Shown here: positions 3,770 through 35,089 of the stretch, one piece after another | Numbering within the stretch: the stretch's first letter is position 1 | Layout: every line of letters starts with the position of its first letter | Assembly (NCBI GenBank): GCA_965261345.1 | Contig: OZ253449.1 | Location: forward strand, 1,568,001 to 1,632,000 | Length of the DNA stretch: 64,000 bases | Reading direction: 5' to 3' | Origin: Chloroflexota bacterium | Lineage (GTDB): Bacteria > Chloroflexota > UBA11872 > VXNJ01 | Made by a program: the position numbers and the translations under genes | The notes under the pieces: model-generated | Databases searched by the model: none | What the model saw: the letters and a program-made list of their open reading frames with translations, nothing else | What the model was told of the DNA's origin: nothing

Positions 3770-4154
3770 TAAATCTGATTGCTCAGTTATCGAGCGTGAA
3801 AATAAAGAGGTTGCTTATTCTCGTATAGTGTGCGGAATGAAAATAAGCGACACGCTTGCCAGTGGGCAGCACCCCGGCCCGCCAACTTTTTGTTCGCGTT
3901 ACCCGAAAGCGAACATCCAAAGCGGCAGATCAATCTAAAAGCGTCCCAGTCCAATTGAGGCTGGTCACGGTTGGGCATTTTCACGGGCTTGAAAGATCTA
4001 GGTTTCCGTAGAAAAATGAGCCCATAGTCGGGGTCGCCATCAAGTGGCAAGCAGCGGGTCGTTTACAAACCCGAATTGATCGCCCCATGCCGACGCGAAG
4101 CTTGGCAAAGTAGGCTGATCTGGCGATCAATTTGCACTTTGAGGGAATTGGCAA

Positions 4155-13525: not shown

Positions 13526-13823
13526 GGTACTTTCCTCTGGCGGGGCTTTGGGATCGCCGCTAAAGGGGCACGGTGACCAAGGGGCTCGACGGGGTGGCGG
13601 CCCAACTTCTGGCCCTGCGCGGCTTCACAAAGCAGATTGATAACACCGAAAACCGATTCCGGCCAAGGCAATTAACCGCACCGGGCTAGCGATTTCTAGG
13701 CTGGCGAACGGAATCGCAAGGGATTCGAGCTTGCTCATCAATAATTATTCAACCAGTAGCAGAGATGAGCGCCATTTTCGAGAACCAGTTGGACTAAGCG
13801 TCCGGCGTTCGGGAGTTAGATAT

Positions 13824-15386: not shown

Positions 15387-15653
15387 GGTTGGCAACCAAT
15401 GCGAAAAACGAAATTTGTCGTGTCCGCGTTTTGGCGAAACTTCAATGCGCAAAAGGCTGAGCGTCAGACGATTCGTCGGATTGAGCCTGTGATCAACTGT
15501 CGCTACTGCACCCGATTGTCACGGGCATACACGCCGGTTCGGCACCGACTCGAATTTGCGAATGGACAGAGCGCCGCGCAGCCGACTGTATCTGAACCAA
15601 GCGTGTTACAAGGCTTGACCAGCATGACGCCGCCGCGATTGGAGAGGAACTAG

Positions 15654-17324: not shown

Positions 17325-17796
17325 CCGCATCAGTCGGCGCGCTAGCTACAGATCTGACGTTAGTCTGCCACCGCAGGGCTCAACATTCCAGACCCGAGAT
17401 GTTGCTGATTCGATTGGGGCGTTACCGCTCATCAATTTGCGTCGAAGCCGACCAGATTACCGGAATCTGCACTTGGAGGGATCAATGGAGCCCGGTATGA
17501 CGCTGCGGCGGCTGTTCCGGTTCGTTCCCTGCGAGATGGGTTTCGGGATCGGGGCTAATTGGCTCAAGAACGCCTTCTGCGCCAATCCAATGCGATCTGT
17601 CGTCATCAGCATGTGGACGGCCACTGAGATCTGCCCGGACACGGACATCGGATGTGGCCGCCCTTGGCCGCCGTTGGGAAATTTTCATGGCCACTGGCCG
17701 GCTCCCCCTCATTGGTACCAGCGGGAATGTGAATAATCTGGTTCCAACGAAAGGGGACTGCAATGGCGAAGCGAAAGTACTCGCCCGAACAGATCA

Positions 17797-19723
17797 GAAC
17801 AGCCAGTCCAACTGGTACCAGGACAAGGAGTGAAAGTCTCCCGTGATGAAGGGCGAGAGCCAGCCCACATCAGCCCGCGAGCCGTGCGCGGGTAACCGCG
17901 AGGTTACCCGTGAAGCGTCGGTAGCGGGGCATGCGAGCCGGGCTATCGAGCGCCGAAATACCGGTTCGGAGCGCCGAGACCGTGATTCTGGTCGAAGGCA
18001 ACACCGACAGCGGCGATATTGGCAAGTCGCTGATCTGGGCTCCGCGGCGTCGAAGAACTCGCGCACGTATGCACGTCCATCCCCGGGACCTGGGAGACCT
18101 GTCCAGCGCCCCAACGCACTCGCAGCATTGGGGCCGCATCGGGAAGGAAGGAGTTTCGCAATCCGATGATGCACGATGTGCAGAAGTCTGATGCGGCCAT
18201 AGTACCTGCGAAGGCGGCGAACAATGGGGCGTAAAACCCCGGCGGAGCCGCCGGAGGAAAGGGCCGCAAGCAAGAGGAACGCGCCAGGCACCGGCACGGA
18301 CTACACCCAGGGGTGGGTTCCCGTGTCACCCGGAGCCGAACGCGTACGGCAACACGCCAAAGAGAACCCAGAGGGAAAACTCACCGCGCTCTTACACCAC
18401 ATAGACCTTGACGCGCTAAGGGATGCGTTCTACGGGCTAAAACCCAATGCCGCTCCCGGCGCCGACGGGATCACGTGGAGGATGTACGAGGAAAACCTGG
18501 AAGAGAAACTTCTCGACCTTAAAGACCGCGTGCACAAAGGAGCATACCGAGCGACCCCCGTCCTGCGGGTAGCGATACCCAAACCGGACGGCGGGAAGCG
18601 AGCGCTTGGAATCGCATCCATAGAGGACAAGATCCTGCAGCGGGCGGTGTGTCAACAGATCCTTGACCCGATCTATGAATCGGAGTTCGCCGGGTTCGCA
18701 TACGGGTTCCGGCCAAAAAGATCAGCGCACGACGCGCTGGACGCCCTGGCCTACGCCATCGAACGGAGAAAAGTCAACTGGATTCTTGACGCCGACATAA
18801 AAGGCTTCTTCGACCATCTCGACCGCGAGCGACTCATCTCGTTCCTGGGAGAGCGAATCGGAGACAACCGCGTCCTGCGCCTAATCCGCAAATGGCTGAG
18901 CACCGGAGTAATGGAAGCCGGAGAACTATCCGACAGCGTGCAGGGAACACCGCAAGGGGCGCCGATATCGCCGCTGCTTGCCAACGTGTACCTGCACAAA
19001 GTCCTGGACTCATGGTTTGCCAAGGAATGGCGACCCAAAAGCGCCAGCGGCGAGGTCTACATCGTCAGGTATGCCGATGACTTCGTCCTGGGATTTGAGT
19101 ACCGCAGCGATGCGGTCAGATTTGCAAAGGATTTGCGAGACAGGCTAGAAGAGTACGGATTAGAGCTTGCAGCCCACAAGACCCGCCTGATCGAGTTCGG
19201 CCGATACGCGATCGAGAATCGCCGCCAGCGTAACGACAGCCGTCCGGAGACTTTTGACTTCCTCGGCCTAACGCATTACTGCCGGACGATGAGCAACGGA
19301 AAGTTCGGACTGGGACGCAAGCCCATCGCCAAGCGCGTCAGACGCACCCTGAAGGCGATCAAAGAGAAGCTGCGTATGCGCATGCACGACGATCCCGCGC
19401 AGACCGGGCAATGGCTCGGGATGGTGCTGAACGGATGGCTCAACTATTACGCCGTCCCCACCAGTTATCCGTCCCTTTGTCGATTCCGCCAACGGCTGCA
19501 ATGGCATTGGAAACGCACCCTGCAGCGTCGCTCGGACAAAGATCGCACCACCTGGGAGCGCATCAGCCAGCTTTGCGACCAACTCTGGCCGCCCGTCCAA
19601 ATCCGCCACCCATGGCCCGCCCAGCGCTTTGCCGTTAGATACTCAAGCTAGGAGCCCGGTGCGTTAACGCGCACGCCGGGATCTGTACGGGGGGCATCGG
19701 GCAACCGGTGTTCCTACCGTGAA
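17797..19723 (+). ncRNA. Group II intron (IIB, bacterial class E/D-like) with non-canonical termini
   Basis: Boundaries from the intron-free IS3 copy (CAGATCA|TCAACAAG); DIII stem TGCGGCC 18192-18198 / GGCCGCA 18262-18268; DV GAGCCCGGTGCGTTAACGCGCACGCCGGGATC; DVI with bulged A19716. Confidence 0.9.
18323..19651 (+). CDS. ltrA: Group II intron reverse transcriptase/maturase without endonuclease domain
   Basis: APGADG, IPKPDGGKRALGI, YGFRP, DADIKGFFD, GTPQG, YADD, FDFLG, GWLNYY, C-terminal HPWP; ORF open from 18224, GTG 18323 is the likelier start. Confidence 0.93.
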   Translation: MSPGAERVRQHAKENPEGKLTALLHHIDLDALRDAFYGLKPNAAPGADGITWRMYEENLEEKLLDLKDRVHKGAYRATPVLRVAIPKPDGGKRALGIASIEDKILQRAVCQQILDPIYESEFAGFAYGFRPKRSAHDALDALAYAIERRKVNWILDADIKGFFDHLDRERLISFLGERIGDNRVLRLIRKWLSTGVMEAGELSDSVQGTPQGAPISPLLANVYLHKVLDSWFAKEWRPKSASGEVYIVRYADDFVLGFEYRSDAVRFAKDLRDRLEEYGLELAAHKTRLIEFGRYAIENRRQRNDSRPETFDFLGLTHYCRTMSNGKFGLGRKPIAKRVRRTLKAIKEKLRMRMHDDPAQTGQWLGMVLNGWLNYYAVPTSYPSLCRFRQRLQWHWKRTLQRRSDKDRTTWERISQLCDQLWPPVQIRHPWPAQRFAVRYSS

Positions 19724-21356
19724 TCAACAAGCTCCGGGCGATAGAGCTGGGCATCGCCCAGGGCGACACCGTCGAGCAGAGCTGCCGCAAGGCGGCGATC
19801 AACGTCCAGACCTATTACCGCTGGCGCTCCCGCTACGGCGGAATGACGATCGCCGAGGCCAAGGAAGCCAAGCGCCTGCGCGAGGAGAACACGCGCTTAA
19901 AGAAGGTGGTGGCCGACCAGGCCCTGGACATCCAGATCCTTCAATGAGAGGCCTTAAGGAAACTTCTAAGCCCGGAGCGGCGGCGCAAGTGCGTCGATCA
20001 CATCCGGGCGATCTTCAAGGTCTCCGAACGCAGGGCCTGCCGGGTGCTGGGCCAGCCCCGCCGCACCCAGCGCTACATCCCAAAACCCGATCCGGAAGAG
20101 GACAACCTCACCGCCGAGATCAGGATGCTTTCCCTCAAACACCCCCGCTATGGCTACAAGCGCATCACCGCCCTGCTTAAACACTCGGGCTGGAAACTGA
20201 ACCGCAAACGGGTATTGCGCATCTGGCGCGCGCAGGGCCTTAAGGTCCCGATCCGAAAGGTCAAGAAGTCGCGCCTCTGGCTGGAGAACGGACGCTCTAC
20301 GCGGCTTATGGCCGAGCGCCCGAATCACGTCTGGGCCTACGACTTTACTTAACCAGCGCACCGAGGACGGCAGACCGCTGCGGATCCTGACCGTGGTCGA
20401 TGAGTTCACCCGCGTGGCCTTAGCGGCCCGGGCGGCCCGATCCTTCCCTGCCGGGGACGTGATCGAGGTCATCGCGGATCTCATGCTCATCCACGGGGTC
20501 CCCGAGCACATCCGCTCTGACAACGGCCCCGAATTTACTGCCAAAGCGATAAGGCAATGGCTATCGGCAAACCAGGTCAAGACCGTCTACATCAAGCCCG
20601 GAGCACCATGGGAGAACGCCTATGCCGAATCCTTCATCTCCAGGGTGAGGGACGAACTCCTGGAGCGCGAGATCTTCTACACCCTCGAGGAGGCCAGGGT
20701 GATGCTGGAGCGCTTCCGGATCGACTACAACAGCGTGCGTCCGCACAGTGCGCTCGGCTACCTATCGCCCCTGGAAGCGATCGCGGCGGCGGCGTGATGG
20801 AGTACCTGCAAGTTGCAATCCGGCTGCTGCCGGCCGGCCTCATCGACGGCCTGGGGTCCGCCTTCGTGGGCGCTGCGGGCGCCTGCAAAATCAACCTCGC
20901 CGCCAACTCTCCTGCAGGAGAGTTGGCGGCACCCTCCCACAAGACAATGTCTCAAACCACCTGGTACCAAAACCGGGGACCTGCCAGCCACCAGCAGGCA
21001 GTTCCCGATGACCGTCCACAATCAGCATGGAAATTTCGGATGGTGCGGAGCGACGAATCAGATTCGAAGTCCGAATCCGATTACCGCTATTCGAGCGCAA
21101 TTCGAAGTTCCCCAGTTGAGGGACGTCGCGTCGCGCTGACCAGACCCAAACCCGGCAAGACTCATCCGTTTTTTGATACAAATCTTGGCGAAAGGCCACT
21201 ACATCGAGCGCCCGAGTCCGTCTGAGGAATCGCCGGTGGATGTGAAAGTTAGATCCGCCAACGGCGCAACAGCGTAAATTTCTCGAAGGTCGCTGCGACT
21301 GAATCAACACGCGTTCAAAATACTGTAAATGTATGAACTAGCCACAGTATTTCCAA

Positions 21357-21623
21357 ATGAAGAAGAACATCACTGTCGCAGTTGACGCAGAGTTGTATCG
21401 TCTAAACCGAATTAAAGCTGCCGAAACCGGGACAACCGTGACTTCAATGGTGCGCAATTTCCTGCATTGGAATGTGTACGGCCGGACCCCGAGTGGGGAA
21501 TTATCGGGCCACTATGATGACGTGCGCGCCATATTCGCGCTAGCAGATGCCAGTGAACATGAATTTGGCGTCGCAGACATGCTTCCGCGCGATCAACTGC
21601 ATGATCGAAATGCAGTTCGTTGA
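21357..21623 (+). CDS. RHH/CopG-like antitoxin
   Basis: KNITVAVDAEL...TTVTSMVRNFL; C-terminal RDQLHDR typical of VapB-like partners; overlaps the PIN gene. Confidence 0.75.
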   Translation: MKKNITVAVDAELYRLNRIKAAETGTTVTSMVRNFLHWNVYGRTPSGELSGHYDDVRAIFALADASEHEFGVADMLPRDQLHDRNAVR

Positions 21624-22047
21624 TACCAACATCCTCATTCAAGCGGTCGGCAAGCGCTGAAATGAGTTGGAGAAAAGGCAGGCGGCTCGACGAATACTCG
21701 AATCCGAAGATTTTGCAGTCTCGGTGCAAGTCTTGCAAGAGTTTTACGTTCAAATTGCGCGAACATCTAGCCCGGTCGGTATATCGCACGAATCAGCAAG
21801 CCGGATCATCGACGGGTTAATTGAATCTAGGGGTGTAAAGATCCAAACGAAAACCCTAAAGGTGTTGCGCTCGGCGCTAGCTTTTCGCGCTCGAATCGCA
21901 TTAAGTGCTTGGGATTGCACGATTTTGGCTGCGGCTCAAGCCTGCGGTTGCGAAGAGATATTATCCGAAGATTTCAGTCATCAGCTCGACTACGGCGGGA
22001 TGCGCGTGATCAACCCTTTCGTCGACCTATGTAGATCGTCCGCATGA
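21601..22047 (+). pseudogene. PIN-domain toxin with in-frame TGA at 21658-21660
   Basis: FVDTNILI...stop...SVQVLQEFY...WDCTILAAA...SEDF...NPF all in one frame. Confidence 0.85.
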
Positions 22048-22098
22048 TCGACTTCGCGTAACAGCCTTAGGAAATTCGACAACTACTGCGGCAATTGA

Positions 22099-22136
22099 CG
22101 CATTGACTCACTGTTTTTGTAATCGAAACAGGCCGT
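22099..22136 (+). repeat. Solo terminal inverted repeat of the ISNCY element
   Basis: First 34 bp are identical to the reverse complement of 34266-34299. Confidence 0.85.
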
Positions 22137-22418
22137 CAGTAGAGGGCGGCAAGATGGCCCTGCGCATCGTGTGCGCTTACATTTACAACCCGGTTGTTTT
22201 ACGCCACACTCCAGAGAACGTGATTCGGGGTGGTGGACGCACATTCACATTTACGCCGACCGCACCAAGGGCGTGAATCGTGATTTACCCGTCGCGAGTT
22301 GACATTAAATCCTCAATCGGCGCGAAAATAATGGGAAACGAAAAGAAAACCAAATCGTTGAAGTTCGCCTTTATCAGGAAGACAACACGAATGGGATAAG
22401 AAAAGAACAGGAAACGAA

Positions 22419-23651
22419 TTGAAAATGATTGGACAGACGAGCCATTACAGTACCCCTGACCATTGGGTTATCTATGAATTCAGTGCGATAGCATCAGCGC
22501 TTATTAAGGCTAAAACTGCTGCCGCTACCCTGAACCGGTTGCCGTACCTGCCGCAATGGATCGAGCAGGCACACGAAGAGCAACTGCGGTTAGAGGCGGC
22601 CGGAACAACTTTGATAGAAGGTGCCGTTTTCTCAGAGCGCGAAAAAGAAGAAGCACTTTCAGCCAATGCCGAGATGAGTAGCGTATTTAATCATTCTCAA
22701 AGGCAATTGAGGGCGGCCGATGCAACCTACCGTTGGATTCGAGAGCAACCAGCGGCGCGAAAAATCGACGCGAGATTCGTATTTGAATTTCACCACCAAC
22801 TTGTAACCGGTTGTGATGACGACCATTGCGAACCTGGCGCGCTGCGACGAACCGGTGCGGAAGCCACTTTTGGAATACCTAGGTGCAGGGGCGCGCGAGG
22901 AGGCGGCGAACTTGCTAACGCATTCGATGGACTAATGACGGCATTCGCTGGCGAGTTTCGACGGCATGATCGCATTGTGCAAGCGATGGCGGCTCACTAC
23001 CATCTCGGTGCCATGCACCCATTTGGCGACGGCAATGGTCGTACCGCGCGGGCATTGGAATCATTCATGCTGCGAGCGGCCGGCGTTAACGAAATGGTGA
23101 TGGTTAGTTTGTCAAATTACTACTACGAGCATGAAAATTCTTACTTTAAATCATTGGATGAATCTCGAAAACAGGGGCACAATCTGACCCCATTTCTCAT
23201 GTTCGCGCTTGACGCGGTTGAATCCCGCTGTAACGCCCTTGCGGATGAAATCGTCATCAACAACAAACGTATCCTCTACCGGGAATTTGCCAGGTCACTT
23301 TTCGGGCGATTACAGAGCCCCCGCCGACGAGCGATCGTTACCCGACAACTGCACATCATTGATGTTCTACTCGGATCCGACAGCATGGAACCCGACGAAT
23401 TGCTCTTAAAAGTCTGGATGCACTATGACGGCTTGAAGCACAAAATACGGGCGTTTGTCAGGGATTTGTCGGGGTTATTAAATCAATTTGCAATCGTGTA
23501 CAGGGATAACCAGTTGTCGGTGGACCTTGACTGGCCACTTAAAACCGCCGGATCGGACCGAATGCAGCAGTACGAACAAATGCCGGCAGCTGCAACCAGC
23601 GCGTTTCCTTCGATGGCGGAACTGTCAAAGTTGTTGGGTCGAAACCGTTGA
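22419..23651 (+). CDS. Fic-family protein
   Basis: HPFGDGNGRTAR; TTLIEG inhibitory motif. Confidence 0.9.
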   Translation: MKMIGQTSHYSTPDHWVIYEFSAIASALIKAKTAAATLNRLPYLPQWIEQAHEEQLRLEAAGTTLIEGAVFSEREKEEALSANAEMSSVFNHSQRQLRAADATYRWIREQPAARKIDARFVFEFHHQLVTGCDDDHCEPGALRRTGAEATFGIPRCRGARGGGELANAFDGLMTAFAGEFRRHDRIVQAMAAHYHLGAMHPFGDGNGRTARALESFMLRAAGVNEMVMVSLSNYYYEHENSYFKSLDESRKQGHNLTPFLMFALDAVESRCNALADEIVINNKRILYREFARSLFGRLQSPRRRAIVTRQLHIIDVLLGSDSMEPDELLLKVWMHYDGLKHKIRAFVRDLSGLLNQFAIVYRDNQLSVDLDWPLKTAGSDRMQQYEQMPAAATSAFPSMAELSKLLGRNR

Positions 23652-24095
23652 CAATTCGTGCCGATTGAATTCCCATTCGCGCGGTTTCCACTTCATTGGG
23701 CCCAGCCCGATTTCAGATCGATGATCTGCGCACGAATGGATCGCAGCAATGGTGCTTACAGGAGCGCTTGAGGTGGTATAGGAAACCTGGTTAAGTGGTC
23801 TCTAGTCCGCGGTTATGTGGTGTGGTTGCTCAGCGATTCGGTCAGAGGTTAAATGTCCAGGAAAAATGCCAGTCCTTCTTTAACAGAGGGCCCGACATTG
23901 AACCTGCAGCAACGCGCCCGGATTCAAGTCCTTCGATGCGTCCTGGCGCACCAGGTTACGGTCGCCTAAGCGTCCAATGTGCTCGACGTTTCCGAGCGCC
24001 ATATCTGGCTGGCGTTTGCTTTCCGTCTACAAGGAAGCAGCGGGAGGCGCGAATAGTATTCACCGATTCGAATCGTCCACGAAAAGAATCGGCAC

Positions 24096-25784
24096 CTACT
24101 CGCCGACGCCATCTGGTTGGTATCCAACCAACCAGGTGCTACCGGCCACGGCAACAAATCGCACGATGGCTTTGTGTCCATCGGCGTCTTGAAGGCCGAT
24201 TGGCTCCCTCAGTTCGAACGGCGCTGGTTGCGATTGGCATTCGTGGATAGCCACGTTTTGTGTGTACAAGTAGGTTCGACCAAGCGGATCCTTGATCGGA
24301 TTGAGCCGGCCTGATATTCCGGGCACCCGCCCTGTGCGGTCGTCAAAGATCACTGATCCTCCACCGGGGCACAGAGCAAGCTGCATCGTTAACGCATATT
24401 CTGACGGTACCCAGTCGAGCTCTACGGCGGCTGCGATCCCGTCGCCGGCTGCGAATACCATCATTTTTTGACCGAGATCGTGAAGTTGCAGGTTCGCCGT
24501 ACCATTACTGTCAGTGATTGCGGATCGGTAGGTTCCGTTCGGAAATAGCGCCGAAATGTGGACACCTGGGGCGGGGGAATTGTCAATCAGGGCCGTGACG
24601 CTTGACCCATCGCCCAGGCTTAGGCTGCGCAACTGGGTCCAGGGGGAGACTTCGACATCGTTGGCGCGGGAAGAAAAATCTCCCCCGTATACGATTGCCG
24701 TTTCAATGTGCTGGGACACGGAACTGAGATGTTGGGATACGCGCCTGACACCGCCAGCGCGGTTAGTAGGTAGGGTGGCGGACGATTTGCACTCGATGAC
24801 CGCCAGGCGATTTGGGTCGTCGATGACAAGATCAGCTTCCGCCCCATTGCTAGCCCGGTAATGGCCAAGGCCTTGTGCCAGGCCACTATTGGTACGGTGC
24901 TTGAGGATCTCGGATACGACCCAAGTCTCAAATAACGGACCCCTGAGCGGGTGCGTTCGCAACTGATCCACGGTCTTGATGCCCAGAAGGTAACAAACCA
25001 AGCCAGTGTCGATGAAATGAAGCTTTGGCATCTTTATTAGTCGTTTTCGGATGTTTGCGTGGTACGCTGACAGCCGATAAGCAATGTAGGCAATCTCTAG
25101 CATGCCGAACCAGGATTTCGCCGTCGGCTGCGTAATTCCGGCGTCGCTGGCCAGAGAGGACAAATTCAATAGTTGCGCTGTCCGACCAGCGCACAGTTGC
25201 ACAAACCGTCGAAAGTCCGATAGATCCCCGATGTTTCTAATTGACCTCACGTCCCGCTCCAAATAGGTGCTGACGTAGGAGCGGTACCAATCGGTCGGAT
25301 CTAGTGATTGGTCAAAGGTTCTCGGGTACCCGCCTGTCAGGATGGATTCGAACATATCCATAGGTGCGAGTCCAAAACGTGTGATTTCGCCGCGCGTTAG
25401 TGGCAGCAACTCGTGTACGGTTGTCCTGCCTGCGAGCGATTGCTGCACCGATTGCAGCAACGCAACGTTGTGCGATCCGGTAAGGACCCATTTCCCGGGT
25501 CGCGGATCCTGGTCAATCGACGGTTGAAGGTACGACAGCAATGCCGGTATGTTTTGCACTTCGTCGATGATCGCCCCGTCGGGGAATTGGGAAAGAAAAC
25601 CGCGAGGATCCGACTCGGCTAGAGCACGAACATCTGGGAATTCGAGATTTGCGTAAGGTAGGTGTGGAAATAATGCTCTGCAAAGGATTGTTTTGCCGCT
25701 TTGCCTTGGACCGGTCAGTGTCAATGTCGAGAATTGGGCCGCAGACTTTAATAGCAACGGTGAAATGTCACGATCGATCAACAA
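24096..25784 (-). CDS. AAA_14/DUF4143-type ATP-binding protein with ~170-aa extra C-terminal domain
   Basis: GPRQSGKT, IIDEVQ, LTGS, SLAGR, GGYP, YLERDVR, KLHFIDTGL, EADL...IECK; then a beta-rich extension. Confidence 0.85.
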   Translation of the reverse strand: MLIDRDISPLLLKSAAQFSTLTLTGPRQSGKTILCRALFPHLPYANLEFPDVRALAESDPRGFLSQFPDGAIIDEVQNIPALLSYLQPSIDQDPRPGKWVLTGSHNVALLQSVQQSLAGRTTVHELLPLTRGEITRFGLAPMDMFESILTGGYPRTFDQSLDPTDWYRSYVSTYLERDVRSIRNIGDLSDFRRFVQLCAGRTAQLLNLSSLASDAGITQPTAKSWFGMLEIAYIAYRLSAYHANIRKRLIKMPKLHFIDTGLVCYLLGIKTVDQLRTHPLRGPLFETWVVSEILKHRTNSGLAQGLGHYRASNGAEADLVIDDPNRLAVIECKSSATLPTNRAGGVRRVSQHLSSVSQHIETAIVYGGDFSSRANDVEVSPWTQLRSLSLGDGSSVTALIDNSPAPGVHISALFPNGTYRSAITDSNGTANLQLHDLGQKMMVFAAGDGIAAAVELDWVPSEYALTMQLALCPGGGSVIFDDRTGRVPGISGRLNPIKDPLGRTYLYTQNVAIHECQSQPAPFELREPIGLQDADGHKAIVRFVAVAGSTWLVGYQPDGVGE

Positions 25785-27047: not shown

Positions 27048-27096
27048 CAGAAGTGGGGAATTTCGGTGATCGTCAACACAATGATCCCAGGACAAG

Positions 27097-28154
27097 TTAC
27101 GCCGCCAGCAGCTTTTCGGCCCGCAGCAGGTTGGATAGCCCGGCCAGCAGCAGCAGGCGCTGGGTGTTCTTGTAGAGCCCGCGGTACCTGACCTTCCCGT
27201 TGCCGAACCAGCACTTGAGATCGTAGAACGGGTGCTCCACCCTGGCGCGCATCGATGACTTCGCCTGCTCGGCTCGCTCCTGGTCAGAATCCTTGTCGAG
27301 GAGTTTGCGCTTCCCCTTGCGCATGGCGATCCTGAACTCGACCTCCTCCTCCGGCAGCCTCTCCTCAATCCCCTGGTAACCGGCGTCTCCCCATACGGTC
27401 TTCTCTTTACCGGTGAGCAGGAATCCGGCCACATTCAGGTCGTGCACGTTGGCCGGGGTGGTGACAAGGGAGTGGACGATTCCCGATCCAGAGTCCACCC
27501 CGACATGGGCCTTCAGGCCGAAGCGCCACTGATTGCCCTTACTTGGCGGAACGCATCTCGGGATCGCGTTTCTTTGCGCGGTTCTTGGTCGAGGACGGCG
27601 CGGCGATGATGGTGGCGTCGACGATGGTTCCCTGCTGCAGCCGCACGCCCTTGGCGGCAAGGTGGTCGATGATGCGCTGGAAGATCTTTGCGGCCAGGCC
27701 GTTCTCCTCCAGGCGGCGACGGAAGTTGAGGATGGTGGTCTCGTCGGGCAACGGTCCATCCAATGCAAAGCCGCAGAATCGGCGCACCGACTCAATGTCG
27801 TAGAGAGCGTCCTCCATCGCTGGATCGGAGAGGTTATGGGTTATCTGCGCCACATGCACGCGCAGCATCTTTTCCAATGTGTAGGGACGGCGGCCGTTGC
27901 CGGCCGTGGGATATACGGGTCCAATCAGATCTTCCAGCTCTGACCAGGGGACCAGGCTGTCAAGGCGGTCAAGGAAGAGTTCGCGCCCGGTCTTGCGCTT
28001 CTTGCTCTCGAATGCGACGTCGGCGAAGGTGCGTTCGGACACGGTCGGGGTTCCAACTCTGCCAGATGTCATGTTCTGATTTTGGATCAGATATCCGATT
28101 CAGCCCAGAGCCGGATAGCCGGCCGGGGTTGGCGGAGACTAATTCAGAGTTGCC
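27097..28154 (-). mobile_element. IS5-family element, frameshifted transposase, one IR missing
   Basis: GRRPY, LSDPAMED, PDETTILNFR, VDATII, FGLKAH, GDAGY, RARVEHPF, RYRGL; frameshift ~27540; end GGCAACTCTGAATTAG next to a TTAG target. Confidence 0.88.
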
Positions 28155-28385
28155 TTAGGATTCCCGCTCAGATTCTCCGGTGATTCTCAGCATTTGCTGG
28201 GCGCGCTCAATTCGCTGACGGAGACTGTCTTGGAACTCGGGATCGCGTTTGCGATTTTCGATGTGCCCCGCAATAGCCATTCGAACAATCTGCACGACCG
28301 GCTTGCCTTCGACAGCCGCGACAGTATCCAATTCTTCCGCTTGCTCGGCCGAGAGGCGGACTGTCATTGCTTTCTGCGGATCCAT
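28155..28385 (-). CDS. Ribbon-helix-helix regulator / antitoxin-like protein
   Basis: KAMTVRL beta strand followed by two helices; divergent from the Ubl operon. Confidence 0.75.
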   Translation of the reverse strand: MDPQKAMTVRLSAEQAEELDTVAAVEGKPVVQIVRMAIAGHIENRKRDPEFQDSLRQRIERAQQMLRITGESERES

Positions 28386-28391
28386 GATCGA

Positions 28392-28451
28392 ATTTTCATC
28401 AATGGTTCGATGGTTGTCAAATGTCGGGCGATCATGATGTCTTGGTATACT
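28392..28451. promoter_or_regulatory. Back-to-back promoters of the RHH gene and the Ubl operon
   Basis: Minus strand: TTGACA 28420-28415, 17-bp spacer, GAAAAT 28397-28392. Plus strand: extended -10 TGgTATACT 28443-28451. Confidence 0.6.
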
Positions 28452-28489
28452 GGTGTCACTGGAGTTTGCCGCGGAGTTAGAAGGAAATC

Positions 28490-28801
28490 ATGACCACGAC
28501 CGAACAACCAGAGGCTACCGGGACGGCCACGCACAACGCGGAAAAACCCGAACCGAAGCTGTTTCATATCCAGATTGACCGTGAGCACTACAAGATCTCT
28601 GAGGAGAAGGTATCTGGCGCTGAGCTCCGTCGCGTGCCCTGTAACCCAATTCCCCCCGACCGCGACATCTTCCAGGTGGTGCCCGGTCACGACGACCGGA
28701 AGATCAAGGACGACGACACAGTAGAGGTCTACGACGGCCTTCGCTTCTTCACCGTGCCCAACACAATCAATCCGGGCGGCTCTACCGCCTGCATAGGCTG
28801 A
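28490..28801 (+). CDS. Ubiquitin-like (multi-ubiquitin family) beta-grasp protein
   Basis: FHIQIDREHY...VSGAELR...DIFQVVPG.DD.KI.DDDTVEV..GLRFFT pattern; ends NPGG-STACIG; AGAAGGA RBS. Confidence 0.82.
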   Translation: MTTTEQPEATGTATHNAEKPEPKLFHIQIDREHYKISEEKVSGAELRRVPCNPIPPDRDIFQVVPGHDDRKIKDDDTVEVYDGLRFFTVPNTINPGGSTACIG

Positions 28802-28814
28802 ACGAGGGCCGATC

Positions 28815-29207
28815 GTGACCCTACCTCAGGCAGACCGTGAATTCCTAGACGGCCTCGACATCGATTACGAAGTTGTCGGTGAATCTGGAATGATCTGTGT
28901 CGTCTTGAAGGGGTGGGAGTTGCCTGCAGGATTTGACCAAGAGATAGCGGATACCTTGATCCGGCTTGCGCCAGGGTACCCAGACATCCCCCCCGACATG
29001 TGGTGGCTCGATCCACCAGCGCGTCTTGCGGGCGGTGTGGATCCTCGCAACACGGGAGTGTATGAGGGATATCTCGGCCGTAAATGGCAGCGCTGGTCCA
29101 GACACCTCAATGCCGGACAGTGGAAGTCCGGTATCGACTGTCTGGAAACCTACGTTGCCCTGATTCGGCAGGAGTTGCAGCGGAGTGTTCCGGCGGGCGT
29201 GCGATGA
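28815..29207 (+). CDS. Prokaryotic E2/UBC-like protein (family E)
   Basis: LPAGF, L.PGYPD.PPDMWW.DP, WQRWSRH, W.SGID motifs. Confidence 0.85.
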   Translation: MTLPQADREFLDGLDIDYEVVGESGMICVVLKGWELPAGFDQEIADTLIRLAPGYPDIPPDMWWLDPPARLAGGVDPRNTGVYEGYLGRKWQRWSRHLNAGQWKSGIDCLETYVALIRQELQRSVPAGVR

Positions 29208-30586
29208 CCGTCACACTAGTCATTCCTCAGCCTATTGCTGATGAGCTATATCGGGCGACCACAGCAAAAATGGAAACAGCTGGCGTTCTTTTGGCCCGAT
29301 ATGCGGAAACACCAACAGGGAACATCCGGATGTTGGCGCGCCAAATCCTTTGGGTGAGTGAAGAGGCCTACCAGTTACGAAGCTCGTCGAAGCTGAGCAT
29401 TAGTTCGGAGGGATACGTTTACTCGCTCGCTGCTGCTGAAGCCGACCAGGCCGTGCCCATCTGGGTGCACACACACCCTGGAAGAAAGTCAACACCCACG
29501 CCTAGTAAATGCGACGAGTTTGTTGACAGACAGCTCGCCGACGTGTTCAGGCTCCGGTCAGGGAGTAATTTCTACGGTGCACTAGTACTTGCGATGGCCG
29601 GTAGTTGGCTTAGCTTTAGTGGACACATTGAGTCCCAAGATTTGCGCATCGAGATCGACCGTATCTGGGTAACCGGACGTCGGCTTGTGTTGGCGATCAA
29701 TGCGTCTGCAATATCACGGCCAATATCCAGGGATTTCGATCGCAACATTCGAGCTTTCGGCGGTCAAATTCAGCGAATGCTTGGAGACCTTTGCGTAGCA
29801 GTGGTCGGCTGTGGAGGAACGGGTTCCTCAGTAATCGAACAGCTGGCTCGGCTCGGCGTGCGCAATTTCATCTTGTTTGACCACAAGGCGTTGACGGACA
29901 GCAATGTAACCCGCGTATATGGCTCCAGTCGGTCAGATGTTGGTCGTCCGAAGGTAGACGTCTTGGCGGACCATGTTGCGCGAATCGCGCCGGATGCCCA
30001 AGTAGTAACTCAAAAGGCTGCGATCAATGAAGAGTCGGCCGCGAGGCAATTGCTAGATGCAGACGTGGTTTTTGGCTGCACCGATGACAACTCAGGTCGC
30101 CTGGTGTTGTCTCGTGTTGCCTCCTACCTAATGACGCCAATAATTGACTGCGGCGTATTGCTGAGTAGCGGAGACGGTGGTGGGATCGAAGGAATCGATG
30201 GCCGCGTCACATTGCTAGGGCCAGGCATGTCCTGCTTGGTTTGCCGGGGGAGGATCGATTTCCTCCGTGCGGCCGCCGAATCCCTCCCGACCGCAGAGCG
30301 CCAACTTCGCATTGATGAGGGGTATGCGCCTGCGCTTGTTGGCATCGAACCTGCAGTCGTTACGTTTACCACTAGCGTTGCGTCGGCAGCAGTAAGTGAA
30401 CTACTCGAACGGCTGATTCACTTCGGGCCCGAACCTGCCCCGTCTGAGATTCTGCTCCGCATGCACGAACGCGAAATATCCACTAACGACCAACAGCCTC
30501 TAGCTGGACACTATTGCCATCCAGATGCCGGCAAGCTTGGTTTTGGAAATGCCGAGCCTTTCCTGGAGCAGGCGTGGGACCGGTAA
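29204..30586 (+). CDS. JAB/JAMM peptidase fused to ThiF/E1-like adenylation enzyme
   Basis: ATGA overlap with the E2 stop; E...HTHP-x8-SxxD JAMM motif; VGCGGTGS, SNVTR, GRPKV, GCTD...R, CLVC. Confidence 0.88.
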   Translation: MTVTLVIPQPIADELYRATTAKMETAGVLLARYAETPTGNIRMLARQILWVSEEAYQLRSSSKLSISSEGYVYSLAAAEADQAVPIWVHTHPGRKSTPTPSKCDEFVDRQLADVFRLRSGSNFYGALVLAMAGSWLSFSGHIESQDLRIEIDRIWVTGRRLVLAINASAISRPISRDFDRNIRAFGGQIQRMLGDLCVAVVGCGGTGSSVIEQLARLGVRNFILFDHKALTDSNVTRVYGSSRSDVGRPKVDVLADHVARIAPDAQVVTQKAAINEESAARQLLDADVVFGCTDDNSGRLVLSRVASYLMTPIIDCGVLLSSGDGGGIEGIDGRVTLLGPGMSCLVCRGRIDFLRAAAESLPTAERQLRIDEGYAPALVGIEPAVVTFTTSVASAAVSELLERLIHFGPEPAPSEILLRMHEREISTNDQQPLAGHYCHPDAGKLGFGNAEPFLEQAWDR

Positions 30587-30875
30587 AGATATTCGTTGCT
30601 TGGTGGCATTCGCTGCCGCTCCCATGGCGGGTATGGCGCATTGTTGGCCGAGTCGGTGACGGAGATGCAATTCCGCTCTGGTTGCCATATGGAGGTGTAG
30701 TTCTAGTTGGACGGATGCGCCGGCCGACATGGGCCGCTCTCGATTGTCCGTGCCGCACAGGCCATAGGCTCCTTCTAAACCTGGACGGGGATCGGCACCC
30801 TTCGTGGACAATCGGCTCGCTAACGCCACTGACAATCATGCCAAGCATCGATTCAGTGACCCCTGAGCGTCGCTG
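30574..30875 (+). pseudogene. DUF6527-like small metal-binding protein, 3' end cut by an IS
   Basis: GGAG RBS + GTG; W..LDCPCRTGH.L.LNL...HPSW...LT..PSI...RRC, then reads into the IS inverted repeat. Confidence 0.72.
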
Positions 30876-30957
30876 CGCATTGACTCACTGTTTTTGTAAC
30901 CCAAACAGGGCCGTTGCCTCACTAGATTTGTAACCCAAATCCACAGGGAGGCAACCG

Positions 30958-32515
30958 ATGCGAGGAAAGAAGCTGAGCCGGGCGGTGCGGAAGGAGCTGC
31001 TAGCGGCCTTAAGGGGCCGCTATGCGAGGGCGTCCAAGATCGACAAGGGCGGAATCCTTAACGAGTTCGTGGCTCTATCTGGCCACAACCGCAAATACGC
31101 AACCCGATTGCTGGGCAATGCTGCAAGCCCTGCTCCGGCACCGCCCACCAAGTCCTCATACCGCATCTACGACGAGGCCGTCAGGGACTCCTTGATCATC
31201 CTTAAGGGAAGCGGCCGATCGGATCTGCGGCAAACGGTTGCAAGCGATATTGCCCAGCCTGATCGAATCACTGGAAGGGCATGGCCACCTGCAGCTTGAT
31301 CTGGACCTTAAAAGCAAGCTCTTCGCGATCAGCCCGGCATCGATCGATCGCCTCCTCAAACCAGTCCGCAAGACCGCCGGCAGCAGTCGACGGCGTCACC
31401 CCCGCCGCCGCAACCGTCATCACGCCAAGGTCCCGATCCGGACGTTTGCCGATTGGCATGGCCCCGACCCCGGCTACCTGGAAATAGATCTGGTGGCCCA
31501 CTGTGGTGGCAACATGGCCGGGAGCTTCATCCAGTCCCTGTCGGTTACCGATGTGTGCTCGGGCTGGGTGGAGGCAGTCCCGCTGCTGGCAAGGGAGCAG
31601 ACGCTTGTGACCGAGGCGCTTGAGGTTATAGGCGGGCGGGTACCGGTGCCAATACTTGGAATCGATACTGACAACGACAGCGCCTTTATCTCCCAGACCC
31701 TTATCGATTACTGCCAAGAGCGTGAAATCGAGTTCACCCGCTCACGCGCCTACCGCTCCAACGATCAGGCCTACATCGAACAGAAGAACGGCGCCGTAAT
31801 CAGACGCTTTGCCGGTTACGAGCGCTTTGCCGGCCTCATCGCCGGACAGACCCTGGCCCGACTCTTTGCCTTAGTTGGTCTCTACACCAATTTCTTCCAA
31901 CCGTCTTTCAAACTGATCTCCAAGCAGCGCTATGGAGCCAGAACCCAAAAGCGCTACGACCGTCCGCTAACTCCCTGCCAGCGCCTGCTCGATCACCCCG
32001 CCGTTGCCGAAAAGGTCAAGGAGGGGTTGCGCGCTACGCGCTTGCAACTGGATCCGCTCTTGCTCCTTAGCGAGATCCGCCAGGCCCAGTCGGCCCTGGC
32101 CACATTGGCATCGCCCGAGGAAAGAAGCAAGGTGCAAAAGGATGATCTGTCGCAGTTCCTGGCCAAGCTCTCTCATCTGTGGCGCGAGGGCGATGCAAAT
32201 CCGACCCGCCGTCCAAAACGAAAGCGCCGCAGGTGGTGGCGGACTTGCCCCGACCCCCTAGAGCACGTCTGGCCCGCGGCGCTTACCTACCTGCAGGATC
32301 ATCCCGACGCCAGCGGCATGCAGATCCTGAAAGTGCTCATGCGTGATCACCCCGACGCCGTCGGGCCCAAGCAGCTGCGGACGTTGCAGCGAAGGCTCAA
32401 GCAATGGCGGTCGGTGATGGCCAAAGAGCTTGTATACGGAGTCGTAAACGGTGCTGATGGTGCGGTTGAGAACGCCGAAATCGTAAGTGAAATCGCGCCA
32501 ATCGGAGTCAAATAA
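30958..32515 (+). pseudogene. ISNCY DDE/rve transposase, frameshift near 31205
   Basis: KGGILNEF...NRKYATRLL; EAADRICGKRL split over frames; EIDLVAHCG, DTDNDSAF, TRSRAYRSND...EQKN. Confidence 0.85.
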
Positions 32516-32763
32516 ACGGTCCCAAATTTCGGTTACATTTTTTGGTGAGGCAACGGGCCGGACAAAGTAACTGTCGCGGATCAGCTCCTGATCGCCCTTA
32601 ACTCGGTGGCCGGCCGCGGCGAGCCCTGGCGGGAGCAGGCGCCCGCGTAGCCGGCCGCGATATCCGGAGCGACCCCGGCGCGGGGAGCACCCGGTTGGCC
32701 GGCTCCCCCTCATTGGTACCAGAGGGAATGTGAATAATCTGGTTCCAACGAAAGGGGACTGCA

Positions 32764-33042
32764 ATGGCGAAGCGAAAGTACTCGCCCGAACAGATCATCA
32801 ACAAGCTCCGGGCCATAGAGCTGGGCGTCGCCCAGGGCGACACCGTCGAGCAGAGCTGCCGCAAGGCGGCGATCAACGTCCAGACGTATTACCGCTGGCG
32901 CTCCCGCTACGGCGGGATGACGCTCGCCGAGGCCAAGGAGAACAAGCGCCTGCGCGAGGAGAACAAGCGCTTAAAACACGCGGTGGCCGATCTAACGCTC
33001 GACAACCAGATCCTGAAAGAGACGGCCTCGGGAAACTTCTAA
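32764..33042 (+). CDS. IS3 transposase OrfA
   Basis: KYSPEQII...TYYRWR..YGG HTH and leucine zipper. Confidence 0.92.
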   Translation: MAKRKYSPEQIINKLRAIELGVAQGDTVEQSCRKAAINVQTYYRWRSRYGGMTLAEAKENKRLREENKRLKHAVADLTLDNQILKETASGNF

Positions 33043-33869
33043 GCCCGGAGCGGCGGCGCAAGTGCGTCGACCACGTCCGGGCCAAGTTCCCGGTGTCTGA
33101 ACGAAGAGCCTGCCGGGTGCTGGGCCAATCGCGCCGCACCCAGCGCTACATCCCAAAACCCGATCCGGAAGAGGACAACCTCACCGCCGAGATCAGGATG
33201 CTTTCCCTCAAGCACCCCCGCTATGGCTACAAGCGCATCACCGCCCTGCTTAAACACTCGGGCTGGAAACTGAACCGCAAACGGGTATTGCGCATCTGGC
33301 GCGCGCAGGGCCTTAAGGTCCCGATCCGAAAGGTCAAGAAGTCGCGCCTCTGGCTGGAGAACGGACGCTCTACGCGGCTTATGGCCGAGCGCCCGAATCA
33401 CGTCTGGGCCTACGACTTTACCTACGAGCGCACCGAGGACGGCAGACCACTGCGGATCCTTACCGTGGTCGATGAGTTCACCCGCGTGGCCTTAGCGGCC
33501 CGGGCGGCCCGATCCTTCCCTGCCCGGGACGTGATCGAGACAATCGCCGACCTCATGCTCATCCACGGGGTCCCCGAGCACATCCGCTCTGACAACGGCC
33601 CCGAATTTACCGCCAAAGCGATAAGGCAATGGCTATCTGGCAACAGCGTCAAGACCGTCTACATAAAGCCCGGAGCGCCCTGGGAGAACGCCTATGCGGA
33701 ATCGTTCATATCCAAGCTCCGCGACGAGCTCCTGGACCGCGAGATATTCTTCACCCTCGAAGAAGCCAGGGTGATGCTGGAGCGCTTCCGGATCGACTAC
33801 AACACCGTGCGCCCGCACTCGGCGCTCGGCTACCTGGCGCCCCTGGAAGCGATCGAGGCGGCGGCGTGA
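33030..33869 (+). CDS. IS3 transposase OrfB (-1 frameshift fusion)
   Basis: YGYKRI, VWAYDF, SDNGPEF, PWENAYAESF, YNTVRPHSALGY. Confidence 0.9.
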   Translation, partial: GKLLSPERRRKCVDHVRAKFPVSERRACRVLGQSRRTQRYIPKPDPEEDNLTAEIRMLSLKHPRYGYKRITALLKHSGWKLNRKRVLRIWRAQGLKVPIRKVKKSRLWLENGRSTRLMAERPNHVWAYDFTYERTEDGRPLRILTVVDEFTRVALAARAARSFPARDVIETIADLMLIHGVPEHIRSDNGPEFTAKAIRQWLSGNSVKTVYIKPGAPWENAYAESFISKLRDELLDREIFFTLEEARVMLERFRIDYNTVRPHSALGYLAPLEAIEAAA

Positions 33870-34320
33870 TGGATCAACTTCCGGTTGCAATCCGGCTGCT
33901 GCTGGCCGGCCTCATCGACGGCCCGGCGTCCGTCTTCGTGGGTGCTACGGGCGGCCGCAATATCAGCTTCGCCGCCAGCTCTCCTGCAGGAGAGCTGGCG
34001 GCACCCTCCCACAAGACAATGTCTCAAACCACCTGGTACCAAAACCGGGGACCTGCCACGGTGATCTGAAGCCAATCTGCTTTTTGTCAACGCCGGGCAA
34101 GGCGCCCGGCAAGGTCCCTGGCGAAGCCGTACCCAGCGCATGGGTCTTTGCAGGGTATGCGCCTGGCAAAGGGAGCTGATTTCACTCCTCCCTTATCTCC
34201 CGGACCCTCTCTGATCCCACCCCGGCGGGTTTGACTTTTGACACGGTTGCTAATGAGGCAACGGCCCTGTTTCGATTACAAAAACAGTGAGTCAATGCGC
34301 GCGGCAAAAGTAGTTGTCGT

Positions 34321-34557
34321 CTACCGGCAAAACTGGGTTTCGCCGTTCACCTGTTGACTCATGCAGAACTCGATCGCGGCGACCGGGTCGGAGTAGCCCA
34401 TGGGGAAGTGCCTGTCTTCGTATACCTCGACAAGGTCGACGAGCACATCGAGCTCCTCCCCCTCGGGCGTACTTTCGCGGGCATCCATGAGCGCCGCGAC
34501 CCGCGCAAGGGCAGCTAGGTAGTCGGCTTCAGTGCGGATGGGCTTAACGTTGACCAT
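34321..34557 (-). pseudogene. higA: HigA-type antitoxin truncated before its HTH
   Basis: KPIRTEADY.AAL...ELDVLVDLVEVYE...DPVAAIEF, then ends. Confidence 0.75.
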
Positions 34558-34559
34558 TG

Positions 34560-34854
34560 CTTCACCTTCTCGTGCATTGATGCGGTTGTATTAGGCATGT
34601 GTCCCCGTGAAGCGGGCGTACGCTGTCTGGTACCGATAGTTGATCTCAACGATCAGGCGGTATTCGTTTCCTCTGATGTTGAAGACGACCCGGTTGCCGC
34701 CAACGATGTTGGCCTTGGAGAATCTTGCCTCGACCTTCGCCGGCGTGTCCCAGTCCTCGTCCTTGACGGTGCGATTCGATGATCGCAGCGGTTCCTCGGC
34801 CTGCGGGGAGCCGGCGACTATCTCCAGTATCCCCAATTCGTGCATGGCGCGCAC
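34560..34854 (-). pseudogene. higB: HigB-type toxin, degenerate
   Basis: NRVVFNIRGNEYRLIV...GTHA followed by TAA where the conserved E would be; N-terminus eroded. Confidence 0.78.
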
Positions 34855-35089
34855 GGATGGGATGGTGGTCGCAGGATCGGCAAAACAATATCATTTTGGC
34901 ATTAGACATAATTGGGCTTAGTTCTAGTGTTTGCCCGTTTCAGGCTGAATCTAGTACGGCCACCGAGCCGATTTGTTGGCGTGGATTGGTCTAAATGGCC
35001 TCGGGTTCTGCGCTGGCGGTCGCCAATCTGCACAGATCGAACGAACCTAACTGATTTAGCATTCGCGGCGAAATCGCCTGAGCGCGTTG

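Follow-up and report, generated by a model that had tools for sequence, protein, structure and literature searches.

Gene content of the locus

The window analysed here, a stretch of 64,000 nucleotides from a Chloroflexota bacterium (assembly GCA_965261345.1, contig OZ253449.1, positions 1,568,001 to 1,632,000 of the forward strand), contains a compact operon for the conjugation of a ubiquitin-like protein (Ubl) that very probably belongs to the Bub systems, a recently described conjugation pathway without catalytic cysteines. A gene for a putative ribbon-helix-helix (RHH) protein is read divergently from bubA, which encodes the Ubl and is followed by bubB (a family-E E2), bubCD (a JAB-E1 fusion) and bubE', the remainder of a DUF6527 gene that has been cut by an insertion sequence (IS). 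The genes are listed below, with positions counted from the first letter of the window.

28155-28385, minus strand: RHH gene, 76 amino acids, divergent from bubA; likely RHH fold by AlphaFold2 (AF2) and Foldseek, homologues in 62/77 loci
28490-28801, plus strand: bubA, single beta-grasp Ubl of 103 amino acids, as predicted by Pfam (Multi_ubiq), AF2 and Foldseek
28815-29207, plus strand: bubB, family-E E2 of 130 amino acids with Asp61, Ser95 and His97 and no conserved Cys (Pfam Prok-E2_E)
29204-30586, plus strand: bubCD, JAB/JAMM peptidase (residues ~1-165) fused to an E1 adenylation domain (~175-460)
30574-30874, plus strand: bubE', truncated DUF6527 gene (Pfam, alignment with 76 homologues, IS boundary at 30875)

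An earlier note on this DNA, made from the sequence without database searches, gave the same open reading frames (ORFs) and junctions, with which the ORF list agrees: bubA and bubB are separated by a 13-nt gap, bubB and bubCD (460 amino acids from its ATG) share an ATGA overlap, and bubCD overlaps the fourth ORF, which runs from a GTG at 30574 to 30933, by 13 nt. The Ubl-E2-JAB/E1-DUF6527 operon of Bub type proposed there is borne out by Pfam and by structural relatives among the Citrobacter Bub proteins. Judged against the curated Pfam cut-offs, BubA matches Multi_ubiq with 32.9 bits (cut-off 24.5), BubB matches Prok-E2_E with 119.7 bits (25; E 8e-35), BubCD matches ThiF with 114.9 bits (28.1; E 4e-33) and the fourth ORF matches DUF6527 with 32.7 bits (23.6), over profile positions 2-51 of 63 only. 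The residues published as catalytic in Bub proteins are present, namely Gly96 in BubA, Asp61, Ser95 and His97 in BubB, and Glu24, His89, His91 and Asp104 together with the crossover-loop Tyr374 in BubCD. When the five window proteins were submitted to PADLOC, the E1 domain was matched by Cap2-type 'E1-E2' models only, the other four proteins had no match, and no system was called.

The operons formerly known as 6E/DUF6527 have been renamed Bub in the preprint of Ye, Gong, Chambers and Corbett (10.1101/2024.11.21.623953), the main text of which gives BubAB, BubCD and BubE as the products of Type I operons and describes the Type I operon of Citrobacter sp. RHBSTW-00271 (PDB 9ea4, 9eae and 9eav). 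Judged by gene order, the arrangement in the window is far beyond chance, since most of 80 loci, drawn from many phyla, have the same order RHH / A B CD E. We read the locus as a Type I-like Bub operon that arrived by horizontal transfer and was subsequently eroded by insertion sequences, and assign to this reading a probability of roughly 0.85. The locus is a damaged member of a known family and not a new system.

The conjugation proteins

BubA comprises a disordered N-terminus (residues 1-24), a core (25-90), an I-N-P-G motif ending at Gly96 (28775-28777) and a seven-residue tail, GSTACIG. A search of its sequence against the PDB returned nothing significant, the best multi-ubiquitin match having an E value of 0.9. 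The AF2 model, built with 43 sequences, has a predicted local distance difference test score (pLDDT) above 90 throughout the core, and its best Foldseek match is the Citrobacter multi-ubiquitin protein 9d59 (E 1.9e-4; root-mean-square deviation 1.7 A over 72 columns), with further matches to the Ubl of Methylobacterium BilA (8u38), the E. coli Type II BubA (9cd2) and BubA complexed with BubCD (9ea8_B). The predicted model is consistent with the beta-grasp Ubl that the earlier note had proposed; the contrary case, a protein of another fold, fails at the level of prediction. Two tandem beta-grasp matches were observed in the BubA of four homologous loci (L008, L014, L016 and L019; loci of the comparison set described below carry such L numbers).

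Gly96 is kept in 77/77 BubA homologues and the I-N-P-G motif in 76-77 of the 77, and the tail that follows the Gly varies from 0 to ~26 residues. In Citrobacter, BubCD is reported to cleave the BubAB fusion after the conserved Gly, to adenylate this Gly and to carry it on the crossover-loop Tyr Y370 (10.1101/2024.11.21.623953, main text). By analogy with the cutting of the BubAB linker, we infer that the tail GSTACIG would be removed by the JAB domain of the window's BubCD; such processing is supported by the conservation of I-N-P-G, by the variable tails and by the tail of L044, which runs in frame into BubB. L044 (about 3357-4001) is the sole in-frame BubA-BubB fusion via the tail among the 76 loci that have both proteins. 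The two are separate in the other 75 (72 were called separate, and in three called fused the tail contains a stop codon), so that unfused BubA and BubB are the rule in this clade. A split of the two genes by a single-base frameshift was considered and rejected because the split form is found in 75/76 loci.

The top PDB match of BubB is Citrobacter BubB (9eae_C, E 3.9e-7), with an identical QRWSRH segment. Citrobacter BubB is reported to carry the Ubl on Ser S333, together with H335 and D299 (10.1101/2024.11.21.623953, main text); these residues correspond to Ser95, His97 and Asp61 of the window protein, the Asp lying 34 residues ahead of the Ser in both. Among 77 homologues, Ser95 and His97 are conserved in all and Asp61 in 76. 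For BubCD, the top PDB match is Citrobacter BubCD (9ea4, E 6e-28), and Tyr374, Arg237 and Glu24 align with its Y370, R227 and E28, as counted in the PDB alignment with a 2-residue chain offset. Glu24, His89, His91, Asp104, Arg237 and Tyr374 are invariant in alignment A1 (25 sequences); residues 348-383 of BubCD contain no Cys. The conserved residues suggest that the window proteins would follow the Type I Bub chemistry, with oxyester intermediates on Tyr and Ser.

The same proteins bear on another reading raised in the earlier note, in which the small protein is a sulfur carrier of the ThiS/MoaD type, thiocarboxylated by a ThiF-like enzyme for cofactor synthesis. The E1 domain does match ThiF/MoeB NCBIfam models, all far below their cut-offs, as well as the structures of MoeB and ThiF (E 1e-12 to 1e-10). 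However, the operon also encodes a JAB domain and an E2-fold protein with the Ser/His/Asp triad of Bub, BubCD has no rhodanese or sulfurtransferase domain by Pfam or NCBIfam, the Ubl finds its best structural matches among multi-ubiquitin proteins, the scanned ORFs beside the operon include no thiamine or molybdenum cofactor genes, and the operon is mobile and has no orthologue in 30 relatives. A sulfur carrier is hardly credible here.

Insertion sequences and the truncation of bubE

The 2.7-kb Bub module is bracketed by IS ends, with an IS5-like element on one side and an IS with an rve-type transposase on the other. The elements are as follows.

27079-28157, minus strand: IS5-like element with DDE_Tnp_1 and DUF772 ORFs, its end abutting or overlapping the RHH stop codon
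30875-32583, plus strand: IS with rve-type transposase (ORFs 30958-31299 and 31238-32515; Pfam rve), which cuts bubE
32584-32695 and 34059-34300, minus strand: 352-bp piece of a related IS in inverted orientation, interrupted by an IS3-family element (Pfam HTH_Tnp_1, rve, rve_3)
32696-34058: IS3-family element, inside the inverted IS fragment 32584-34300

A second genomic copy of the IS5-like element is 98.6% identical over 1080 nt, and other copies of the bubE-cutting IS match the same span, from 30875 to 32583, at 89-99.7% identity. Because the IS boundary lies at 30875, bubE ends at 30874; the fourth ORF closes with 59 nt of IS DNA (30875-30933), which supplies a false tail, ALTHCFCNPNRAVASLDL, and a stop codon. 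The earlier note was right to treat the fourth gene as broken and gave the extent of the ORF correctly, to 30933; the part from 30875 onwards lies outside the gene. The truncated gene keeps its W-rich N-terminal extension, Cys58, Cys60, His64, Pro90-Ser91 and the first base of the Cys101 codon, and loses a conserved His and ~19 further residues. Among 76 BubE homologues, Cys58, Cys60, His64 and Pro90 are each found in 76/76, and Ser91 and Cys101 each in 75/76; the last Cys is directly followed by HF or HY in 75/76, with a median of 19 residues beyond the Cys. Matched by position and without an alignment to Citrobacter BubE, the His after Cys101 corresponds to the published catalytic His.

No plausible continuation of bubE was found in any frame beyond the IS cluster, which gives way to the end of a small ORF that neighbours higB on the other strand; PF20137 is found once in the genome. 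No target-site duplication of the bubE-cutting IS could be defined here, since its right flank is another IS fragment, and the other genomic copies show none. The left end of this IS comes in two forms: in some copies GCGCATTGACTC is preceded by a 25-nt terminal inverted repeat (TGA[AT]C..CGAC...), and others, including the one at 30875, begin directly at GCGCATTGACTC with unrelated flanks. BubE is reported to act as a Ser-His peptidase with bound zinc and to remove BubA conjugates, which are lost on co-expression of BubE (10.1101/2024.11.21.623953, main text). The system in the window is probably crippled, or at least unable to undo tagging, with the regulator and the conjugating half alone surviving.

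Homologous loci and the sixth gene

A protein search with BubCD yielded 2359 proteins at E<=1e-10 among 8000 candidates scored, the best 119 non-self matches being 458-463 amino acids long and 62-73% identical. A contig scan with the single BubCD protein as query had returned no relatives; a profile scan with alignment A1, over one genome per species, confirmed 189, from which 80 loci were kept for comparison. These come from Dehalococcoidia, Acidobacteriota, Alpha- and Gammaproteobacteria, Actinomycetota, Planctomycetota, Gemmatimonadota, Nitrospirota and others, and tblastn with the five window proteins found the same gene order in most of them.

Clustering of the downstream ORFs identified a further protein of ~300-320 amino acids, encoded on the same strand downstream of bubE, whose ORF often overlaps the bubE stop codon (ATGA-type in 18 of 53 collected). 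Three of three scanned members match the ClpP-like SDH-type serine proteinase family PF01972 with 48.6-60.4 bits (cut-off 31.3), the NCBIfam equivalog model is matched in part only, the neighbours in the ESM Atlas all fall in SDH_protease clusters, and PADLOC has no match to this protein. The family model covers the N-terminal half alone; the C-terminal ~130 residues are clade-specific and conserved, and His255, Trp283 and Trp287 are invariant in alignment A3. Examples of the gene are the following.

L003, 5733-6680: SDH protease gene
L007, 5733-6671: SDH protease gene
L036, 5667-6611: SDH protease gene

The protease was counted with a local hidden Markov model in the 75 loci that have bubE and at least 1000 nt downstream of it: it is adjacent to bubE in 63, further downstream in two and absent in ten. 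Of the 60 RHH-bearing loci, 57 have it next to bubE and two have it further downstream. In L004 and L028 the gene lies 1.4-1.7 kb past bubE, which suggests an insertion between the two. The genome of the window has no SDH protease by tblastn of 53 members (E<=1e-3).

In 12 loci, a blastp cluster of proteins of ~535 amino acids is encoded after the SDH protease or, in L029 and L030, directly after bubE. Both of the two scanned members match dCMP_cyt_deam_1, and the L030 protein matches the NCBIfam model for anti-phage dCTP deaminase, NF041025, with 402 bits (cut-off 400) and the PADLOC dCTPase model at 6e-136.

L030, 5721-7331: dCTP deaminase-type gene
L031, 6716-8320: dCTP deaminase-type gene

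With this query no bub orthologue was found in 30 relatives of the host, six of them of the same genus; three have only E1 matches of 29-34% identity. The nearest named match to the host's GlmU, at 54% identity, bears a name cut short at 'Chlor...', which is weak evidence for a Chloroflexota host. Plasmid records with homologues number 52, seven of them at 49-56% identity, and the phage collection contains no BubCD homologue at E<=1e-10. The absence of orthologues from the 30 relatives and the homologues on the 52 plasmid records point to a horizontal origin of the operon. The gene products annotated on one plasmid copy are CopG-family ribbon-helix-helix, multiubiquitin, E2/UBC, ThiF, DUF6527 and hypothetical. 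Also observed was a Fic family gene encoding ~190 amino acids upstream of the RHH gene in 14 homologous loci (e.g. L077, 2320-2898) and on a Phenylobacterium plasmid (L082), where the Fic gene (1931-2515) is convergent with the RHH gene.

These results bear on the view, taken in the earlier note, that the four genes form a complete and self-contained pathway, with the DUF6527 protein as its E3, adaptor or substrate. In favour of it, translation of the four genes is coupled, the metal-binding pattern of Cys58, Cys60, His64 and Cys101 is conserved as given above, and target recognition was also guessed for this protein by Iyer et al. 2006 (PMC1779556). Against this stands the Ser- and His-dependent BubE peptidase of Ye et al., with which conjugates are lost. 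In addition, bubE here is truncated ahead of the His at the catalytic position, and the sixth gene, kept at the bubE end in 63/75 loci, is missing. The pathway as it stands in this genome is not self-contained, with BubE lacking its conserved His and the sixth gene absent, and the published removal of BubA conjugates by a Ser-His peptidase speaks against the E3, adaptor or substrate role; we consider the whole view very unlikely. The preferred reading remains that of a Type I-like operon eroded by insertion sequences.

The RHH gene and a candidate operator

The small divergent protein scores below the family cut-offs throughout: RHH_1 16.6 bits (20.5), DUF6290 18.1 (27), RelB-like 20.5 (50) and ParD also below. 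Its top PDB profile match is the CopG-family protein 6iya (E 0.056). The AF2 monomer model (46 sequences; pLDDT 87) has helices at residues 13-26, 30-46 and 49-75, and the top Foldseek matches are mostly RHH proteins, namely CopA(SO) 6iya, ParG, CopG-DNA, Arc-operator and AtaR, with probabilities up to 0.99. The model makes an RHH fold likely. Of 77 evaluable loci, 62 have a divergent homologue with 53-75% identity no more than 600 nt from bubA. The earlier note did not associate an RHH regulator with such systems; it proves to be a conserved partner of the operon and is probably its repressor.

28392-28420, minus strand: promoter-like site of the RHH gene (TTGACA, 17 nt, GAAAAT; 10/12 matches)
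28435-28458, plus strand: three tandem 8-bp boxes TGATGTCT, TGGTATAC and TGGTGTCA, degenerate copies of TGGTATC over the bubA -10; candidate RHH operator

Since the promoter-like site ends 6 nt ahead of the ATG of the RHH gene, the RHH mRNA is probably leaderless. The sequence TTGTCAA, the complement of which gives the consensus -35 element TTGACA, occurs exactly in 53 of 63 RHH-bearing intergenic regions and in none of 15 RHH-less ones. In the clade, boxes of the form TGGTATC are spaced by 8 bp, with +21 and +29 from TTGTCA as the commonest offsets, and overlie the presumed bubA -10 (TATCNT, 18 nt past TTGTCA). At least two such boxes, with one mismatch allowed, are present in 48/63 RHH-bearing regions as against 0/15 RHH-less ones, and the mean number of boxes is 2.17 compared with 0.33 in shuffles. 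The boxes of the window, TGATGTC at 28435, TGGTATA at 28443 and TGGTGTC at 28451, are degenerate relative to the clade TGGTATC.

RHH repressors that act on tandem short boxes include CopG, Arc and Mnt, as well as MetJ with its 8-bp metboxes. The locus resembles these in that a small, probable RHH protein is encoded divergently from its presumed target operon and tandem 8-bp pseudo-palindromic boxes overlap the -10; it differs from them in that similarity stays below the family cut-offs and in an additional conserved C-terminal helix (49-75), as in antitoxins of the AtaR/KacA type. In several of the 15 RHH-less loci, the upstream ORFs resemble, by eye from the translations, a helix-turn-helix (HTH) protein and an ImmA-like peptidase; a peptidase-like ORF lies upstream in nine loci, eight RHH-less and the RHH-bearing L049. 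An HTH protein together with such a peptidase is reminiscent of the CapH+CapP regulators, reported for 31% of Bub operons in the main text of Ye et al. (10.1101/2024.11.21.623953).

The words 'ribbon' and 'RHH' are absent from the main text of both Bub preprints (10.1101/2024.11.21.623953 and 10.1101/2024.11.21.623966), as are 'Clp', 'SDH' and 'downstream'; the supplementary tables may list such genes. The 2026 EMBO J paper on CapK+CapS (PMC13373217) likewise contains neither 'ribbon-helix-helix' nor 'RHH', and the former term is missing from other full-text literature among the matches listed. A subtype with an RHH gene, operator boxes and an SDH-type protease thus appears to be undescribed in the main texts of the Bub literature searched.

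Proposed mechanism and its weighing

Put together, these features suggest the following course. An RHH dimer on the tandem 8-bp TGGTATC-like boxes over the bubA promoter would hold the operon off. Once the operon is expressed, and by homology to Citrobacter, the JAB domain of BubCD would trim the seven-residue tail of BubA and expose Gly96, which the E1 domain would adenylate and then take onto Tyr374 as an oxyester. BubB, aided by His97 and Asp61, would receive BubA on Ser95 and pass it to lysines of the targets. In intact relatives, BubE would strip the conjugates as a zinc-bound Ser-His peptidase, and a ClpP-like SDH-type protease is encoded next. In the window, the IS cuts bubE just ahead of the conserved His, and the sixth gene is missing.

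Several observations weigh against the assignment to Type I Bub and against the regulatory scheme. The match of BubCD to Prok-JAB is weak (19.4 bits, below the Pfam cut-off of 25), the JAB domain aligns poorly with that of Citrobacter BubCD (7.2 bits), and the E1 domain is only ~30% identical to the Citrobacter proteins. The bubA and bubB genes lie in different frames, separated by their 13-nt gap, whereas according to Ye et al. every Type I operon has them fused. By chance, a His of the IS-derived tail stands four residues past Cys101, so that the truncated BubE, as judged from its sequence, may retain residual activity. Every Foldseek match of the RHH model has an E value above 0.1, so that the fold is likely and unproven. 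The +21 box of the window has two mismatches, and only two of its boxes pass at one mismatch or fewer. Finally, we infer from co-occurrence alone that the RHH protein would bind the candidate boxes as its repressor operator.

It is possible, if rather unlikely, that the remnant still works and is under selection, the loss of BubE and the protease having removed an off-switch only, so that conjugation continues or is inducible. In line with this, the RHH protein, BubA, BubB and BubCD retain all alignment-invariant residues, and Citrobacter BubA, BubB and BubCD are reported to conjugate in E. coli without BubE (10.1101/2024.11.21.623953, main text). The IS copies are 89-99.7% identical, which means that the cut may be recent; by the same token, the intactness of the remaining genes may merely reflect a recent insertion. 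Moreover, compared with the clade consensus, the promoter and candidate operator of bubA are degenerate, and retention of the SDH protease in 59/60 RHH-bearing loci (57 adjacent, two further downstream) argues that the protease is needed.

A wider proposal, which we offer tentatively and hold to be doubtful as a whole, is that the window contains the decayed form of a six-gene Bub subtype, so far undescribed, that is widespread among phyla and on plasmids. In this subtype, an RHH protein and metbox-like operators would replace the DNA-damage regulators, a ClpP-fold SDH-type serine protease would be translationally coupled to bubE, tagging would be linked to proteolysis, the third helix of the RHH protein would sense a Bub component, and the system would serve in defence. 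The link between tagging and proteolysis, part of the same joint and doubtful claim, could take the form of degradation of tagged proteins or of a protease effector controlled by the tag. The defence role is suggested by the anti-phage dCTP deaminase genes that occupy the same operon position in some members. The role of Bub, which the earlier note had called unresolved, is still open in the Bub papers of 2024 and 2026. The window itself adds nothing on Bub chemistry. Comparison with its 80 relatives, however, reveals a large clade with an RHH regulator, a recognisable candidate operator and a tightly coupled ClpP-like protease, and some members carry an anti-phage dCTP deaminase in the operon; together with the regulator and the protease, this gives concrete handles on the purpose of Bub tagging. 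In this genome, the operon is a foreign acquisition already broken by IS expansion, and annotation as a complete pathway is unwarranted.

Surrounding genes

An island upstream of the operon spans 13731-25784, and the neighbouring genes are the following.

15654-17324: protein with GmrSD_C and a lamin-tail domain
18224-19651: reverse transcriptase (RVT_1)
22419-23651: Fic protein of 410 amino acids, 4.5 kb upstream
23795-24250: weak RES-like ORF
24096-25784: AAA_14/DUF4143 ATPase
from about 25822: fragments of transposase genes (rve_3)
34321-34890, minus strand: HigB-family toxin gene (PF09907, E 1.2e-23), with a 78-amino-acid partner ORF that has no Pfam match

The stop codon of the HigB partner falls within the inverted IS fragment, in its terminal repeat, and the C-terminus of the partner may therefore be altered. 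The description of the region as a defence island holds loosely, in view of the GmrSD_C protein, the Fic protein, the AAA_14/DUF4143 ATPase, HigB and the many IS copies nearby; PADLOC calls no system here.

Comparison with known systems

Two related systems can be set apart by architecture. Type II Bub operons encode BubA, BubBD and BubE, with the E2 fused to the E1 and no JAB domain, and Bil systems employ Cys thioesters and an E1 of the IAD-AAD-CYS layout (both after the main text of 10.1101/2024.11.21.623953). Like the window operon, both are Ubl conjugation operons of mobile or defence loci, and Type II Bub also shares BubE and the oxyester chemistry; the architecture of the window matches neither.

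A further related layout is operon type 6e, which Iyer, Burroughs and Aravind listed in Table 1 of their 2006 study (PMC1779556) as a polyUbl or solo Ubl, a Cys-less E2/RWD-like protein, a JAB-E1 protein and a small metal-binding protein, with both fused and unfused Ubl-E2 forms. The window shares the solo Ubl, the Cys-less E2, the JAB-E1 fusion and the small metal-binding protein; it departs from the type 6e description there, which lists neither an RHH protein nor a ClpP-like protease. The functions proposed in that study, an inactive E2 and a zinc-finger protein that recognises targets, are superseded.

The closest counterpart is the Type I operon of Citrobacter, with which the window shares the JAB-E1 fusion with a crossover-loop Tyr and no Cys, the E2 with Asp, Ser and His, the Ubl Gly that needs trimming and the DUF6527 gene in last place. 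The differences lie first in BubA, which in the window has one beta-grasp domain as opposed to three in Citrobacter and has a gene of its own and a short tail, where Citrobacter has a BubAB fusion. In BubE, the third zinc ligand of the window clade is apparently His64 in place of the Cys of Citrobacter, as read from the pattern without an alignment to Citrobacter BubE, and the clade proteins carry a His directly after the last Cys, unlike Citrobacter. Finally, the clade has an RHH regulator where known Bub operons have CapW, CapH+CapP or CapK+CapS, and it adds an SDH-type protease gene to the Citrobacter set, of which the window retains a truncated bubE.

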